Notes under the pieces: generated by a model
What the model saw: the letters and a program-made list of their open reading frames with translations, nothing else
Told to the model about the DNA's origin: nothing
Databases searched by the model: none
Made by a program: the position numbers and the translations under genes
DNA from: a virus
Lineage: Duplodnaviria; Caudoviricetes
DNA length: 62,234 bases
IMG/VR virus record: IMGVR_UViG_3300020044_009834
Coordinates: 1-62,234 of that record
Reading direction: 5' to 3' (one strand)
Shown: in pieces, positions 38,221 through 49,172 of the stretch
Layout of the letters: every line of letters starts with the position of its first letter
How positions within the stretch are numbered: the stretch's first letter is position 1

Positions 38221-38260
38221 ACTGAGAGCATTACCCTTAGGGCTAGATAACACTCTCAGT
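38221..38260 (-). other. long bulged RNA hairpin (possible RNase III-type processing site)
   Basis: - strand ACTGAGAGTGTT ATCTA GCCCTAAGGGT AATGCTCTCAGT; G-U pairs form only on the - strand. Confidence 0.5.
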
Positions 38261-38267
38261 ATCTTTT

Positions 38268-38283
38268 GTGTCCTTAAAGACAC
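38268..38283. promoter_or_regulatory. GTGTC-N6-GACAC palindrome
   Basis: GTGTC CTTAAA GACAC, 2 nt after a stop codon. Confidence 0.75.
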
Positions 38284-38285
38284 TC

Positions 38286-39029
38286 CTAAAATAGGAAATC
38301 TTCTATATGATAGTTAGCGATGTCATCTGTTGGGTTTGAGCCAAAGTATTTTCTGTATACATCTAAAGCCCTACCCACCTTGAGACCACCACCATCCACA
38401 AACTCTTGTGTTGGCTTAAAGATTCCCAACTGAGCAGTACCCTTATCTACTACGAAGAACACCAATGGCTTACCAAATAATTCTTGGTATATGTAGCATT
38501 GCGAATCGTAGTTGTATGCCTTGGCAGAATACTTAAACTTATGGATGTCTGCTGTGGTTTTTAGGTCTATGATAGAGTGTTCTGTGACAATATCTGCCTT
38601 ACCTTTCCACATCATTCCCTGAATCAATCCGATGTTTGGAACTTCATATTGGTTATTGGAATCATATATCTCTTCGTAGAATGTTATGTTACCATTCATT
38701 ACCTTCACAAGTTCTTCAATCTCATCCATCTCCTTCTTTAGCATACAGAACGGCAAGTTATTCTCTTGACAGAAATTCTTGTACTTATCAGTATTTCTTG
38801 ATGAAGCATCCATAAACTTAGTTAGCTTCGCCTTCTCAGGCTCAAGTATCAACTGATGGAAGTATCTACCATCCATGAAACTTTTATTATCTTCTCTAGC
38901 TGTACCAAACATCTTTGGGTTTGAAAGTAATGTGCCTATATCTGAATTAGATAAGTAGTTCTTTCCTATCCCCGAATAATACTCATTATCATCCCTTAGG
39001 GTTTCTATAATCTTTGATTTATCTGTCAT
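38286..39029 (-). CDS. RecE/exonuclease VIII-like PD-(D/E)xK nuclease
   Basis: YLSNS, G..FH..ILEP, KGKADIV, IIDLKTT, Y.YDSQ..IY. Confidence 0.85.
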   Translation of the reverse strand: MTDKSKIIETLRDDNEYYSGIGKNYLSNSDIGTLLSNPKMFGTAREDNKSFMDGRYFHQLILEPEKAKLTKFMDASSRNTDKYKNFCQENNLPFCMLKKEMDEIEELVKVMNGNITFYEEIYDSNNQYEVPNIGLIQGMMWKGKADIVTEHSIIDLKTTADIHKFKYSAKAYNYDSQCYIYQELFGKPLVFFVVDKGTAQLGIFKPTQEFVDGGGLKVGRALDVYRKYFGSNPTDDIANYHIEDFLF

Positions 39030-39031
39030 GA

Positions 39032-39721
39032 CTATTTCTTTTTAGTAGGTTTAGATGCTCTCTCTTCACTAGGTAACATTGGCTCAGGAGTCGGTTCAGG
39101 TTTAGCTTGTAGTGATGGGTTAATTAGAATTTCTATCTCAGAAATAATGCTCGCATCCAACGTATACTTACGAGATAGTTGTTGCTTAATTACATTAAGA
39201 CCTAACTGTTTATTAGCTGTAGCATAAGATACTACTTTACCCCAAGCCTCAGAGTCTTTTACCAATGGCAACATCTCTACCACTTTTGGTGGAATTGGTG
39301 TAGCTGTAGGTGTTTCAGGTAAGTCTTCCCCGGCATAGATGTAGATACCTAAGCCAAACATAGCTAAGTTCTTTACTAAACAACGCATGATTGTTTTGTT
39401 GATGTCAAACATCGTAGCTGCCTCAACTGTCTTCTGACCGAATTTTGTAGAGTATGTGTACTCAGTCTTCTTCATAGACTTGTTTGCGCCATCCATTACA
39501 GGCAACCACATATCTAATGTCTCACCTTGGATAGTAACTGATGTGTGACACATGAATCCTAGAGTCTCATCGTACGCTGTCTCCTTGATGTCGTACCTTG
39601 TGTCAGGACAAGCCTTTTTAACTTCTGACCAAGCCCATGCCCATGATAGGTAGCTTAGGTCTTTTTTCTTTTCAACGTGGTCGTTCACATTGATTGCTGA
39701 TAACTTTTCGAATGTTGTCAT
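39032..39721 (-). CDS. Sak/DUF1071-like single-strand annealing protein
   Basis: HVEKK..LSYLSWAWAW, MWLPVMD, DINKTIMRCLVKNLAMFGLGIYIYAGEDLP. Confidence 0.9.
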   Translation of the reverse strand: MTTFEKLSAINVNDHVEKKKDLSYLSWAWAWSEVKKACPDTRYDIKETAYDETLGFMCHTSVTIQGETLDMWLPVMDGANKSMKKTEYTYSTKFGQKTVEAATMFDINKTIMRCLVKNLAMFGLGIYIYAGEDLPETPTATPIPPKVVEMLPLVKDSEAWGKVVSYATANKQLGLNVIKQQLSRKYTLDASIISEIEILINPSLQAKPEPTPEPMLPSEERASKPTKKK

Positions 39722-39750
39722 GATTTGATTTGATTTGATTTGATTTGATT
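39721..39750. repeat. (TGATT)6 tandem repeat forming the A-rich leader of the annealase gene
   Basis: tgatttgatttgatttgatttgatttgatt; AAATC units also precede other start codons (6790, 9410, 40053, 62050). Confidence 0.8.
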
Positions 39751-40051
39751 AAATGTAAACTGCTTTTTCTATGTCCTTAATTATAGTTGTCAGGTCTGAA
39801 TCATCTATAAGTTTATTTTCAACTACTGAGATGCCATGTATGATTGATGGATGCGCTATGGTGTATCCATTATCACTCATATACTTTTGAATATAAATAA
39901 GTTTCATTGGTCTCTTTGAACATAGGTAATATAATAGATGCCTTGCATCCACTAACTCACGTTTCTTTGATTTTGAGAATAGTTCAAACTTCTTGATTTG
40001 ATATAGGTCTGCGACCCTATCTACATACTGATTAAATACATCTTGTTTCAT
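39749..40051 (-). CDS. stand-alone DnaA domain IV-like protein
   Basis: VADLYQI...LFSKSKKRELVDARHLLYYL...HPSIIHG. Confidence 0.75.
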   Translation of the reverse strand: MKQDVFNQYVDRVADLYQIKKFELFSKSKKRELVDARHLLYYLCSKRPMKLIYIQKYMSDNGYTIAHPSIIHGISVVENKLIDDSDLTTIIKDIEKAVYI

Positions 40052-40075
40052 TATTTGATTTGATTAATTGGACTA

Positions 40076-40083
40076 CAAATATA
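40076..40083 (-). promoter_or_regulatory. Bacteroidetes -7 box
   Basis: TATATTTG on the - strand, upstream of the replication operon. Confidence 0.65.
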
Positions 40084-40111
40084 GTTAATATGTACATCCC
40101 TTGTTTAATTC

Positions 40112-47410: not shown

Positions 47411-47441
47411 AGTATGTTAGCCTATCTCGGGCTAACATACT
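47411..47441. repeat. 12-bp inverted repeat over the amidoligase stop codon
   Basis: AGTATGTTAGCC TATCTCG GGCTAACATACT. Confidence 0.7.
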
Positions 47442-48327
47442 TCTTGATTTTTGCGCTTATCTTACCATGTAGAATAAAGGCTGTGAAATCTTTGGACATT
47501 GTCATTACATCCTCTACTTTCGCCATGTCACCATTGTACATACTTACAATGATTGGTTTTAATAGCTTAAGCAATTGTGCTAATGTACCATTGGGATTGT
47601 TTACACTAAAATCTACAATGATGTAAAACATCTCATACCTTCTCATCATTTGCTTTACTGACTCAAACTTACTAACGATGCGAAACTCTAAGCAAATGTC
47701 CTTAACTAAGGCTGCTTGGTATTTGTTATGCCATCCATTGTGATGTCTAGCTGTCTCGTATCTTCCCTCCATCCTTTGGTTATGTCCACAATATTGTGTG
47801 CCATTAGCAGATTTTTTGTTTAGTCTATGGCGATACAATGACCAAATAACTCCACAATTTTTTCTCATTATCTTTCTAATCTCTTCACCACTCATGCCAT
47901 CAATACCTATAGTCATATGACCTCCACAGCTACCATTACTTGGACTGAATCTCTCATCGATAATAGGCTGTGCTTTGAACATCATGTCAAATACTTTTGT
48001 GCGCCATGGTGATGGTGGTAATAAAGGTAAAATGTTGGTTACTGCTTCTACTCCACAGCTACCATCGTATTCAAAGCCACAGAAAATCTCGTACTCTTTT
48101 ACTGCATCACGATGAAACTCTACTTTTTCTACTTCCATGCCTACAGTAAACTTACTGCCATTGGCAATCGTGTTACGTTTGTCTTTCTTTGGAAGATTTG
48201 CAATGTCAATTTGATGGCATTTGCTGATGTCACGATGACTAGGCTTGTGGTGATAATTAGCTAGTCTTCCTCTGTTTTCTTCATTTGTCAGAGTGAATTG
48301 CACTCCTTGATTACTTGATGTATTCAT
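47422..48327 (-). CDS. putative amidoligase (COOH-NH2 ligase, glutamine-synthetase-like fold)
   Basis: FTVGMEVE, DGSCGVEAVT, SCGGHMTIG, KY, LEFR. Confidence 0.78.
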   Translation of the reverse strand: MNTSSNQGVQFTLTNEENRGRLANYHHKPSHRDISKCHQIDIANLPKKDKRNTIANGSKFTVGMEVEKVEFHRDAVKEYEIFCGFEYDGSCGVEAVTNILPLLPPSPWRTKVFDMMFKAQPIIDERFSPSNGSCGGHMTIGIDGMSGEEIRKIMRKNCGVIWSLYRHRLNKKSANGTQYCGHNQRMEGRYETARHHNGWHNKYQAALVKDICLEFRIVSKFESVKQMMRRYEMFYIIVDFSVNNPNGTLAQLLKLLKPIIVSMYNGDMAKVEDVMTMSKDFTAFILHGKISAKIKKYVSPR

Positions 48328-48350
48328 ATTTGATTTATTTTATTTGTTTG

Positions 48351-48392
48351 TTCTGAGGGGATGAATCGAACATCCCTACAACCATTCTCAGA
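48351..48392 (-). ncRNA. minimal tRNA mimic (12-bp acceptor/T stack with D-loop remnant)
   Basis: TCTGAG AATGGTTGTA GGGATG TTCGATT CATCCC CTCAGA A; covaries with the 47368 copy. Confidence 0.78.
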
Positions 48393-48394
48393 TT

Positions 48395-48410
48395 GTGTCT
48401 ATAAAGACAC
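48395..48410. promoter_or_regulatory. GTGTC-N6-GACAC palindrome
   Basis: GTGTC TATAAA GACAC, 2 nt after a stop codon. Confidence 0.8.
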
Positions 48411-48412
48411 TA

Positions 48413-49060
48413 CTACATATTTGATATCACAAATGATAAGACATTTAAAACATCTTGCAATTGTTCCTTAGTGTTAGTGGTTTTGTAGTCACCTTGGCTG
48501 TTCATTCTGAATGATACATTGCCATTGGGATTTTTGTAAGCTAACGTAAGCACTACTTGTCTGTCAGCTACTTCTACTTGGCTTTCTTCACCTTCACCTT
48601 CTCCTTCACCTTCTCCTTCTTCACCTTCGCCATTGGCTGTTCTGCTTTCAGCTAATTGCTTGCTGTATTTAAGCAGTCCTTCCAATGTTCTCTCGGGATT
48701 TTTGTTTTGGCTTTCCATTACATCACATAATGCTTGGAATGTCTCTACTACATGACCTTCTAACTTGCTTGCTTTAAGCATTTTGTAGTAGTAAGATTTT
48801 TGCCATCCGAAAACTTTTAGGCTGAACTGCTCTGTAGTCCATGTAATACCCTCCTCGGCACAGATTTGCTTACCTTCATCTGATGTAAACCACTCACTTG
48901 CCTTTAATACTAATTTGCTCAGTTCCAATGATGTATGAAACTTGTTTTTCTGTGCATTTGCTACCTTTTTTGTAGCTGTTCTGATTGCACTCATGTTTAA
49001 GCCTTGGCTTACTACTTCTAAGCCTAAGAAGGCTTGCTCGATTGCTAATAATTCACTCAT
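48413..49060 (-). CDS. first early protein, with acidic (GE)n linker
   Basis: Likely start MSELLAIEQ after an AAAC-rich leader; the track's upstream extension overlaps RNA elements. Confidence 0.7.
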   Translation of the reverse strand: MSELLAIEQAFLGLEVVSQGLNMSAIRTATKKVANAQKNKFHTSLELSKLVLKASEWFTSDEGKQICAEEGITWTTEQFSLKVFGWQKSYYYKMLKASKLEGHVVETFQALCDVMESQNKNPERTLEGLLKYSKQLAESRTANGEGEEGEGEGEGEGEESQVEVADRQVVLTLAYKNPNGNVSFRMNSQGDYKTTNTKEQLQDVLNVLSFVISNM

Positions 49061-49098
49061 AATTTTTGTTGTTTGTTTGTTTGTTTTTTTATTTGTTT

Positions 49099-49114
49099 GT
49101 GTCTTCATAGACAC
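49099..49114. promoter_or_regulatory. GTGTC-N6-GACAC palindrome
   Basis: TGTGTC TTCATA GACACA. Confidence 0.8.
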
Positions 49115-49118
49115 ATCG

Positions 49119-49172
49119 TGGAGAGCGGAGATGAAACGAATCTCCTCGCAAATCCTCATATGATTGCTCCCC
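49119..49172 (-). ncRNA. tRNA-like leader element
   Basis: GGGGAGC AATC ATATGAG GATT TGCGA GGAGA TTCGTTTCA TCTCC GCTCTCC A; the T-like loop is 9 nt. Confidence 0.55.

Follow-up and report, generated by a model that had tools for sequence, protein, structure and literature searches.

Features of the early region

The window analysed here is a whole virus record of IMG/VR, IMGVR_UViG_3300020044_009834, rated complete, with 62,234 bases and about 33% G+C. Positions refer to it unless a relative is named. Our subject is the spacers between its minus-strand early genes, in which the palindrome GTGTC-N6-GACAC typically follows a stop codon and is often followed in turn by a hammerhead ribozyme or by an RNA shaped like all or part of a tRNA (a tRNA mimic). 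The plus strand carries podovirus-type structural genes: terminase, portal, a capsid-like protein and a protein of 3307 amino acids (aa) without assigned function. The minus strand carries a replication and recombination block that includes a Sak annealing protein, an exonuclease, a primase-helicase and an SNF2 helicase. The nearest named relative is the uncultured podovirus MW202828.1, with 75% aa identity in the primase, and the Flavobacterium elemo phages are more distant. A megablast search with 38000-49300 found no near-identical DNA in the phage collection.

Bacteroidota habitually place A-rich leaders without a Shine-Dalgarno motif before start codons, and their -7 promoter element is TAnnTTTG. 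Leaders of this kind precede start codons in the window. A box scan of the window found no TAnnTTTG in any spacer between 49.1 and 40.9 kb; minus-strand boxes stand before the genes at 40483, 40083, 37746 and 50234, and many plus-strand (late) genes also have one. A terminator scan of the minus strand from 49.1 to 37.8 kb returned no strong terminator-like site before 37860, where the early transcript likely ends (Table 1). A weak 5-bp match at 44862-44878 (-) lies inside an open reading frame (ORF). This pattern of sites fits one long early transcript, in which the genes would be co-transcribed.

A preliminary description of this DNA had proposed that the longer early spacers share one order of parts: stop codon, palindrome, structured RNA, A-rich leader and ATG. 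The palindrome was confirmed in that setting. The window contains 13 exact copies, where 100 shuffles average 0.02, and one-mismatch copies number 0 against 0.64 expected. Seven exact copies lie in minus-strand early spacers (49099, 48395, 46815, 45057, 43250, 40936 and 38268) and six fall outside 38221-49172. The described distance of 2-11 nt from the stop codon holds for all early-spacer cores but the one at 49099, upstream of the first gene. Overall, spacer copies keep to a range of 2-17 nt past stop codons. The hammerheads at 45001 and 43194, the mini tRNA mimics at 48351 and 46762 and the full-size mimic at 40839 were all recovered by the analyses below, as was a different 12-bp hairpin in the palindrome's place at 47368, which is seen in the fold. 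The promoter that had been placed before the mimic at 44389 did not hold up: no host-type box was found, and stop 44556 and two hairpins precede the mimic.

Table 1. Positions of spacer elements, palindromes and associated features in the window and, for the pseudoknot, in relatives
Feature	Position	Strand	Basis
6-bp hairpin just upstream of the 49099 palindrome	49127-49145	-	fold
Palindrome upstream of first conserved early gene (ATG 49060); only an A-rich leader after it	49099..49114	-	exact match
Palindrome, 2 nt after preceding gene's stop (48413)	48395..48410	-	exact match
Mini tRNA mimic: acceptor stem, AUGGUU linker, T arm (loop UUCGAUU), no anticodon arm	48351..48392	-	
Unrelated 11-12 bp hairpin replacing the palindrome before the 47367 mini; contains stop 47422-47424	47412..47440	-	fold
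Mini tRNA mimic: 7-bp acceptor stem, AAUGGUUAA linker, T arm	47367..47409	-	
Palindrome, 2 nt after stop at 46833	46815..46830	-	exact match
Mini tRNA mimic with D arm, without anticodon arm	46761..46811	-	
Palindrome lengthened to hairpin with 8-bp arms, GGAGUGUC-N6-GACACUCC	45054..45075	-	fold
Type III hammerhead; predicted self-cleavage after GUA, 45047/45046; next ATG 15 nt downstream	45001..45053	-	
Hairpin with 8-bp stem between stop 44556 and tRNA mimic; no palindrome	44501..44534	-	
Full-size tRNA mimic: intact acceptor stem, D and T arms; upstream of GGACT/amidotransferase gene	44389..44490	-	
Lengthened palindrome hairpin before hammerhead	43247..43268	-	fold
Type III hammerhead, core CUGAAGA, U·U at 10.1/11.1; predicted cleavage 43240/43239; ATG 14 nt downstream	43194..43246	-	
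Lengthened palindrome hairpin before full-size tRNA mimic	40933..40954	-	fold
Full-size tRNA mimic, member of a conserved family: acceptor GGUCAGG; D and T arms conserved, lower half variable	40839..40926	-	
Palindrome, 2 nt after stop at 38286	38268..38283	-	exact match
16-bp hairpin (38221-38260) with loop GCCCUAA complementary to 38205-38211	38205..38260	-	fold
Hairpin with U tract, likely end of early transcript	37835..37860	-	terminator scan
Palindrome with 11-bp arms and U tract: intrinsic terminator after capsid-like gene	9374..9401	+	5/5 genomes
Palindrome in SNF2 helicase ORF, read SVFEDT; same codons in 5 genomes despite synonymous drift	33717..33732		
Further in-ORF palindromes	2280 (terminase); 24111 (giant protein); 51167 (GroEL)		
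Palindrome beside convergent terminator	31780		
Lone, oppositely transcribed MarR-like winged-helix gene, 121 aa; candidate palindrome binder	53101..53466	-	
Pseudoknot counterparts of the 38221 element in relatives	L005 9328-9380; L007 15448-15500; L008 14560-14612; L010 6515-6567; L009 9748-9800; L011 9794-9846; L084 4017-4069; L086 10264-10316		

Hammerheads and tRNA mimics in the same spacers

A search with the GGACT/amidotransferase protein (43275-44369) gave nine IMG/VR loci at 52-60% aa identity (L005-L013). All nine carry the palindrome, in 3-9 copies each, and the association of palindrome and structured element is conserved in all of them. In these relatives, what comes directly behind the palindrome is a mimic (mini or full-size), a hammerhead or a short leader only.

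A descriptor scan of the relatives and the window found 26 hammerheads, plus one spurious antisense match. The core CUGANGA...GAAA is invariant in all 26 aligned copies, and 91.1% of the cells of the alignment are paired, compared to 69.7% in shuffles and 35-49% in slid controls. Changes on both sides were seen at 12 of 16 pairs, all of stem I is paired (100%) and its pairs covary in 6 of 6 cases, and none of 500 shuffles reached the covariation score. The aligned hammerheads were used to build a covariance model, R1, with which 280,736 bases, MW202828.1 among them, were searched. R1 found 27 copies at 62-76 bits, all on the gene-sense strand, and nothing weaker up to E = 1; none was in MW202828.1. 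Both window hammerheads score 73-74 bits, have the CUGANGA/GAAA core and vary in a compensatory way in stems I and II. A search with R1 of another 80 loci containing the exact palindrome (682,904 bases) yielded eight additional hammerheads, five of which start 1-5 nt past a palindrome. The cleavage triplet is GUA in 18 of the 27 copies and GUC in the other nine, and positions 10.1/11.1 are G-C in 16/26 and U·U in 10/26, including both window copies. By core, cleavage triplet (of the form NUH), three helices (I and II capped by loops, III open) and covariation these elements are genuine type III hammerheads, and they are predicted to cleave themselves.

One unannotated hammerhead of this clade (R1, 47.9 bits) was also seen in a cultured phage, vB_FspP_elemoF_6-3D (NC_055853.1, L150), at 17866-17920 (-). 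It ends 14 nt before the ATG of gp59, the first early gene, in a genome without the palindrome.

Each of the 27 hammerheads is preceded by a hairpin, which is the palindrome, at most 20 nt upstream, in 19 cases and an unrelated GC hairpin in eight. Those eight hammerheads, which have no palindrome nearby, directly abut GC-rich hairpins of 7-11 bp, and the mini mimic at 47367 likewise abuts an unrelated GC-rich hairpin. The order of palindrome and then cutter (our term for hammerheads and mimics) is invariant. The distance from palindrome core to predicted hammerhead cut has a median of 11 nt (range 6-33), and the next ATG lies 14-49 nt past the hammerhead in the 27 copies. Minimum-free-energy folds give the hairpin with a three-way junction or the hairpin with an acceptor/T stack, at z scores from -2.1 to -6.2. 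The flanks of the palindrome were compared by class, with classes set by regular expressions. In the 20 copies followed by a hammerhead within 80 nt, the first five flank positions to each side of the core hold 59 Watson-Crick pairs, 26 G·U pairs, 0 A·C and 15 unpaired. The mean extension of these palindromes is 4.4 bp on the sense strand versus 1.35 bp on the antisense strand, and palindromes before a tRNA mimic or before nothing show no extension. The presence of G·U without A·C indicates that the pairing of the hairpin is selected in the sense RNA. Taken with the spacing, the hairpin rule leaves as constants a hairpin, a predicted cut, a structured 5' end and an A-rich leader.

The three mini mimics fold as an acceptor stem plus a T arm, and the predicted RNase P cut of the 48351 mini falls between 48393 and 48392. 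The mimic at 44389 has two hairpins in place of the anticodon arm and variable region. The Rfam tRNA model gives 48.7 bits to 40839-40926 and 33.3 bits to 44389-44490. ARAGORN called no tRNA gene in the whole window; on L005-L013 it called one mimic, as an odd Ser-ACU, with one other undetermined. For 20 mimics from the window and relatives, the acceptor stem has 7 of 7 pairs in 15, with at least three standard pair types at each of its seven positions. The G53-C61 pair and the T loop UUCRANU are present in 20/20, and CCA follows the discriminator in only two. The minis are 41-50 nt long, and the joint of 9-19 nt between acceptor stem and T arm usually keeps a UGG(U) motif, which we read as a remnant of the D loop that would form the tRNA elbow. 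The full-size mimics (70-108 nt), a widely conserved family, keep the acceptor stem, AGUCAGG or GGUCAGG, together with the D and T arms, and have variable hairpins in the lower half. These RNAs do not have the form of decoding tRNAs, a cloverleaf whose 7-nt anticodon loop carries U33 and a purine at 37: the minis have no anticodon arm and the full-size ones have odd hairpins there. They do have the shape of RNase P and RNase Z substrates of the t-element or mascRNA kind: an acceptor stem of 7 bp in a stack with a T stem of 5 bp, the T loop and G53-C61.

A sixth mimic in the window, 69 nt long, lies at 55271-55339 (+); its acceptor stem has 7 bp, the D and T arms are present and the anticodon loop is abnormal. 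Neither ARAGORN nor Rfam at its gathering threshold calls it, and it has no palindrome upstream. It begins 3 nt after the stop of an M15 peptidase (endolysin-like) gene and ends 3 nt before the ATG of a lipoprotein-like signal peptide, so an RNase Z-type cut there would give a near-leaderless mRNA. Genuine tRNA-Arg(UCU) genes were seen in contigs that share the palindrome (L032 10800-10874 and L061 1475-1549), and real tRNAs and anticodon-less mimics thus coexist in this set of phages.

The predicted early proteins were clustered and the elements were laid on the gene order, which allowed orthologous spacers to be compared. The F5-to-F6 spacer holds the palindrome only in seven loci, the palindrome and a hammerhead in L012, and the palindrome and a mini mimic in the window. 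The spacer after F6 holds a hammerhead in five loci, a mini in the window and, by reading, also in L013, and nothing in two loci. After the GGACT gene, MW202828.1 has only the palindrome, the window and eight loci have the palindrome and a hammerhead, and L012 has the palindrome and a mini. Hammerhead and mini are therefore exchanged across genomes in three orthologous spacers, and the interchangeability of ribozyme and mimic that had been proposed from the window is borne out by the comparison that had been put forward as its check. This suggests that both cutters serve simply to cut the message. Since the two share only a predicted cut at the 5' edge, the idea that the hammerheads cut mRNA is directly testable.

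These observations can also be explained if the mimics are small RNAs in their own right, such as defence decoys, or decayed tRNA genes, with the hammerheads as selfish insertions and the shared slot as the only free space. The spacers are indeed the sole non-coding room in a tightly packed operon, the full-size family is widely conserved with its elbow intact, and genuine tRNA-Arg(UCU) genes occur among the relatives. However, the minis keep only the half of a tRNA that RNase P and RNase Z recognise, and the elements keep a fixed order and spacing with respect to the hairpin. Both kinds of cutter are confined to the sense strand, spacers that lack the palindrome still have a hairpin, and orthologous hammerheads persist across genomes of 52-60% aa identity. 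We consider this explanation improbable.

The slot at 38221 differs from the others. It had been described as a long hairpin, which is correct as far as it goes; the loop is also complementary to a sequence just downstream, and the counterpart in eight relatives, upstream of the same 100-aa gene (window 37881-38183), is an H-type pseudoknot with helices of 12 and 7 bp (Table 1). The pseudoknot alignment has 94.7% of cells paired and five double-changed pairs among seven distinct sequences, and the pseudoknot often follows a full-size tRNA mimic. Neither the 38221 element nor its counterpart has a meaningful match in Rfam. We read 38205-38260 as a leader structure of the 37881-38183 gene and not as an RNase III site; the pseudoknot might act as a translational operator or represent an unclassified RNA. 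RNase III cleaves the early transcript of T7 at intergenic sites, after which the upstream piece is protected by a hairpin at its 3' end. In the present phage, hairpin stems of 5-12 bp are too short for classical RNase III, and the neighbouring element is the proposed cutter. The palindrome stems of the window measure 5-8 bp, or 10-13 bp if lengthened, and fall short of the roughly two helical turns of T7-type RNase III sites. With these stem lengths and with a pseudoknot in the relatives' slot, the third chemistry of the preliminary description, RNase III acting on a long hairpin, finds no support.

The palindrome as a probable recognition site

Five relatives were searched whole and contain 10-16 perfect copies of the palindrome each, with none in the reversed control. 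In IMG/VR, the palindrome is contained in more than 120 stretches. Copies with one mismatch number 0-2 per genome against 0.6-1.2 expected, which is the chance level. In most relatives the full 16-bp palindrome is GTGTCTTYRAAGACAC. In MW202828.1, GTGTCGTTAACGACAC occurs 14 times without variation, always in the early region, and the typical spacer there consists of TAA, 3 nt, the palindrome, a leader of 17-39 nt and the ATG, without a hammerhead. The elemo phage NC_055853.1 and Maribacter phage Panino contain no copies.

The preliminary description had coupled the palindrome to the cutters. This is true of the cassettes, and the palindrome is also found in spacers without a cutter, inside ORFs and as the core of late terminators. 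The in-ORF copies lie at the same codons in different genomes and in three frames: CLQRH in the terminase, VSSKT in the giant protein and a 112-aa protein, and SVFEDT in the helicase. For conserved residues, the codons are identical in all genomes at 13 of 17 positions inside these palindromes compared to 7 of 71 in the flanks, and the flanks show no pairing. The counterparts of the giant protein carry one or two in-frame palindromes (VSSKT), and the same peptide and nucleotides occur in the relatives' 112-aa protein. After the capsid-like gene, the palindrome with covarying flanks and a U tract forms a terminator in 5/5 genomes compared, and in G004 it forms a two-way terminator at the convergent junction. 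A minus-strand scan reported none of the seven early-spacer palindromes as an intrinsic terminator. Together these patterns point to sequence-specific recognition of the palindrome, as DNA or as RNA, apart from cutting.

Two resemblances to known sites were set aside. A likeness to the DnaA box was dropped by eye, as the conserved CACA is unmatched, and GTGTC as the recognition site of T7 primase was dropped because this phage's primase is of a different type.

Recognition could take place on DNA. In mycobacteriophage L5, many copies of one short protein-binding site, the stoperators, stand in short spacers, and MarR dimers bind palindromes of this size (about 16-20 bp). The palindrome could be primarily a DNA operator for a MarR-like dimer, acting across the genome as a stoperator-like roadblock or shut-off, with the cutters as a separate layer. 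The lone 121-aa gene at 53101 encodes a candidate binder. It has its own TAACTTTG box, and its product is 55% identical to a 'repressor protein' of MW202828.1. A tblastn search with this protein matched 27 loci, 26 of them near full length, including all five whole genomes. The structure model has a pLDDT of 85, and its top PDB matches all belong to the MarR family (TM 0.53-0.60, E about 1e-3). As a homodimer the model scores 0.69 versus 0.06 for the best control, with a contact agreement between runs of at least 88% and a partner pLDDT of at least 81. In calibration, the mark was reached by 20 of 30 solved homodimers and by one of 23 single chains; since structures of MarR dimers have been solved, the pass may reflect likeness to them. 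Our best guess is that the palindrome is the DNA site of this dimer.

The perfect copies with one-mismatch copies at chance, the full symmetry in most relatives, the 14-fold invariance in MW202828.1 and the conservation in ORFs without flank pairing all favour an operator. However, distant homologues of the MarR-like protein (34-41% identity) occur in the palindrome-free elemo phages and Panino, and canonical RNA terminators are built around the palindrome. In the spacers the centre of the palindrome reads TTCAAA 12 times and TTTGAA three times on the sense strand, a bias that a symmetric DNA site does not predict. Three small proteins with the helix-turn-helix of DnaA domain IV (41368-41748, 39749-40051 and 31993-32544, all on the minus strand), two of which are conserved in relatives, could equally bind the palindrome. 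Compared to L5 stoperators and MarR operators, the candidate site here is symmetric, occurs also in ORFs and doubles as an RNA hairpin or terminator. We regard a primary role as operator as a serious possibility that falls short of probable. It concerns the palindrome only and is compatible with cutting; the cutters would stand beside the palindrome only because its transcript offers a ready-made seed for a hairpin. More distant homologues of the MarR-like protein were also seen in Cellulophaga and Maribacter phages.

Recognition could instead take place on RNA. The palindrome would then be a hairpin for a trans-acting protein, either an endoribonuclease or a 3'-end binder, with the cutters as cis reinforcements, and spacers with only the palindrome would also be cut or protected. 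The fixed position past stop codons (TAA plus 3 nt in seven of the nine spacer copies of MW202828.1), the sense-strand bias of the loop, the G·U-containing extensions on the sense strand only, the use of the site as a terminator hairpin and the invariant order and short distance to the cut all fit this explanation. On the other hand, a 5-bp stem with a 6-nt loop is weak alone, in-ORF copies would expose essential mRNAs to cutting, and the symmetry of the loop (TTYRAA, GTTAAC) is needless for an RNA hairpin. Searches of the early proteins against Pfam, PHROGs and NCBIfam also yielded no nuclease or RNA-binding candidate. We judge a trans-acting reader of the hairpin unlikely.

Bacteriophage N4 uses promoters of a hairpin type, and the palindrome might similarly be the promoter of an unrecognised phage RNA polymerase, in which case the cutters would only trim 5' ends. 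A copy stands before nearly every early unit, 15-40 nt from the ATG in palindrome-only spacers, and one stands upstream of the first early gene. The genome also encodes the giant protein (21822-31745, +), whose counterparts in relatives have 2665-3860 aa. However, searches of Pfam, PHROG and PDB sequences gave no match for the giant protein, which also lacks a DxDGD motif, and its identification as a phage RNA polymerase was rejected on these grounds. Many late genes and several in the early region have host-type TAnnTTTG boxes before them, the palindrome also forms terminators, and a symmetric site gives transcription no direction. The upstream flank is selected for RNA pairing, which implies that the palindrome itself is transcribed. 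A promoter is the least probable of the roles considered, and highly so.

The region upstream of the early genes contains a long non-coding stretch (49200-49860) of tandem GCTGTAGCTATAGCTTTGCTGTC-like units, each with a TAGCTTTG box, along with a G9 run and AT-rich palindromes (ATACATATACATGA...). This stretch may hold early promoters or a replication origin.

Proposed cutting of the early message

We propose that the early transcript is cut between cistrons and that the RNA upstream of each cut retains a hairpin at its 3' end. The host polymerase would make the minus-strand early genes as one transcript, from about 49.2 kb to the 37.84-kb terminator. In seven spacers a stable hairpin would be followed, within a few bases, by an RNA that is cut at its own 5' edge. 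Two of these RNAs are hammerheads, which would cut themselves after GUA and leave a 2',3'-cyclic phosphate upstream and a 5'-OH downstream. The other five are mimics, pared down to the acceptor/T-arm stack and the elbow, which host RNase P would cut at +1; as CCA is not encoded in them, a further cut by RNase Z, behind the discriminator base, may occur. The upstream message would end in the hairpin and a short tail, shielded from 3' exonucleases, and the downstream message would start with a compact structure, then the A-rich leader. The cutters would be plug-in modules that replaced one another in evolution. The sequences themselves show the elements with their covariation, the constancy of order and spacing, the exchanges across genomes and the sense-strand pairing of the hairpin; co-transcription, the cuts themselves and an effect on RNA stability or translation would follow from these. 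We give intercistronic cutting a probability of roughly 0.65.

Several observations weigh against it. The Rfam Hammerhead_3 model (RF00008) gives 34.8 bits to 45000-45054 (E 3e-5 on 2 kb), below its gathering score of 48.5, and has no match to 43194-43246. At gathering thresholds Rfam recovered none of the 25 hammerheads of the nine relatives; in those 147,651 bases it returned only three tRNA matches and no other ribozyme class. The clade lies under the curated threshold, and standard annotation therefore does not see it. The U·U at 10.1/11.1 may slow the hammerheads. The mimic descriptor found 22 matches versus 6.8 in shuffles, so isolated matches should not be trusted, and the mimics used here rest on position and conservation. 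By regular expression, 49 of 86 palindromes fall in the class without a cutter. MW202828.1 has its 14 palindromes and no hammerhead, which means that cutting in cis is not essential to the palindrome's role. Some cutters have no upstream cistron, for example the elemo phage's hammerhead, which stands ahead of its first early gene, and a hammerhead of L011 in the leader of F5, and the benefit of a cut may thus lie with the downstream RNA only.

Operator and cutting can be joined in one scheme for a family of Flavobacterium-type podophages. In it, the 16-bp palindrome on DNA is an operator of the MarR-like dimer and gates transcription at 10-16 genomic sites; on RNA it ends each unit as a 3' hairpin or terminator, and the cutters behind it have taken each other's place repeatedly. 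As a whole this combination is a tentative proposal, and we would lean against all of its parts holding at once.

Known systems offer partial parallels. In mitochondrial tRNA punctuation, the t-elements of plant mitochondria and the mascRNA of MALAT1, tRNA shapes serve as marks for cutting by RNase P and RNase Z and so set the ends of mRNAs. The mimics resemble them as tRNA-like shapes in longer transcripts and predicted cut marks. In contrast to tRNA punctuation, they belong to a Bacteroidota phage, have shrunk in the minis to an acceptor/T stack that is 41-50 nt long, follow a hairpin and can be exchanged for a ribozyme. Engineered cutting of polycistronic RNA (RiboJ, ribozyme-flanked guide RNAs and arrays of tRNAs and guide RNAs) uses hammerhead, hepatitis delta virus (HDV) and tRNA elements interchangeably. 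The system described here is natural, with the same two solutions in the same slots.

Among phages, Perreault et al. (2011) describe tandem hammerheads in polycistronic RNAs of prophages and bacteria, with several between the genes of one prophage transcript, which give gene-sized pieces on cleavage, and a hammerhead just upstream of the early helicase gene in haloarchaeal virus HF2, where the mapped 5' end lies at most 3 nt from the cleavage site (PMC3088659). The likeness lies in several hammerheads between phage genes; here, a hairpin, mostly the 16-bp palindrome, stands before each, and a tRNA mimic takes the orthologous slot elsewhere. HDV-like theta ribozymes are reported to stand beside tRNAs in gut phages (PMC10879173). 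The likeness is an association of small self-cleaving ribozymes with tRNA-shaped RNAs in phages, but on that account theta ribozymes mature real decoding tRNAs, whereas here the shapes lack an anticodon loop and the ribozyme replaces them. A 2019 review treats the roles of bacterial and phage ribozymes as unresolved (PMC6765202), and a further source states that in some RNA viruses translation is promoted when a ribozyme cleaves upstream of ORFs (PMC13725137). Our search of the literature, which did not reach about 1.7 million PMC articles, found no account of swaps between hammerhead and tRNA mimic, of the hairpin rule or of the palindrome in phages; the supplementary figures of Perreault et al. 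(2011) may show similar contexts.

The palindrome is a strongly selected signal, as seen from its all-or-none sequence, its 10-16 copies per genome, its conservation in ORFs in three frames and its use as a terminator core. The cassettes are a natural counterpart of the insulators of synthetic operons and would be a parallel, in a bacterial virus, to mitochondrial tRNA punctuation. The cultured elemo phages, which grow on Flavobacterium sp. BAL314, provide an experimental entry point for this clade of hammerheads. The replacement of a ribozyme by a minimal RNase P substrate at one orthologous spacer amounts to evolution's own experiment. If the joint scheme of operator and cutting holds, the exchanges would provide the first evidence from comparison that phage hammerheads naturally serve just to sever mRNA, a task that host RNase P could do equally well.

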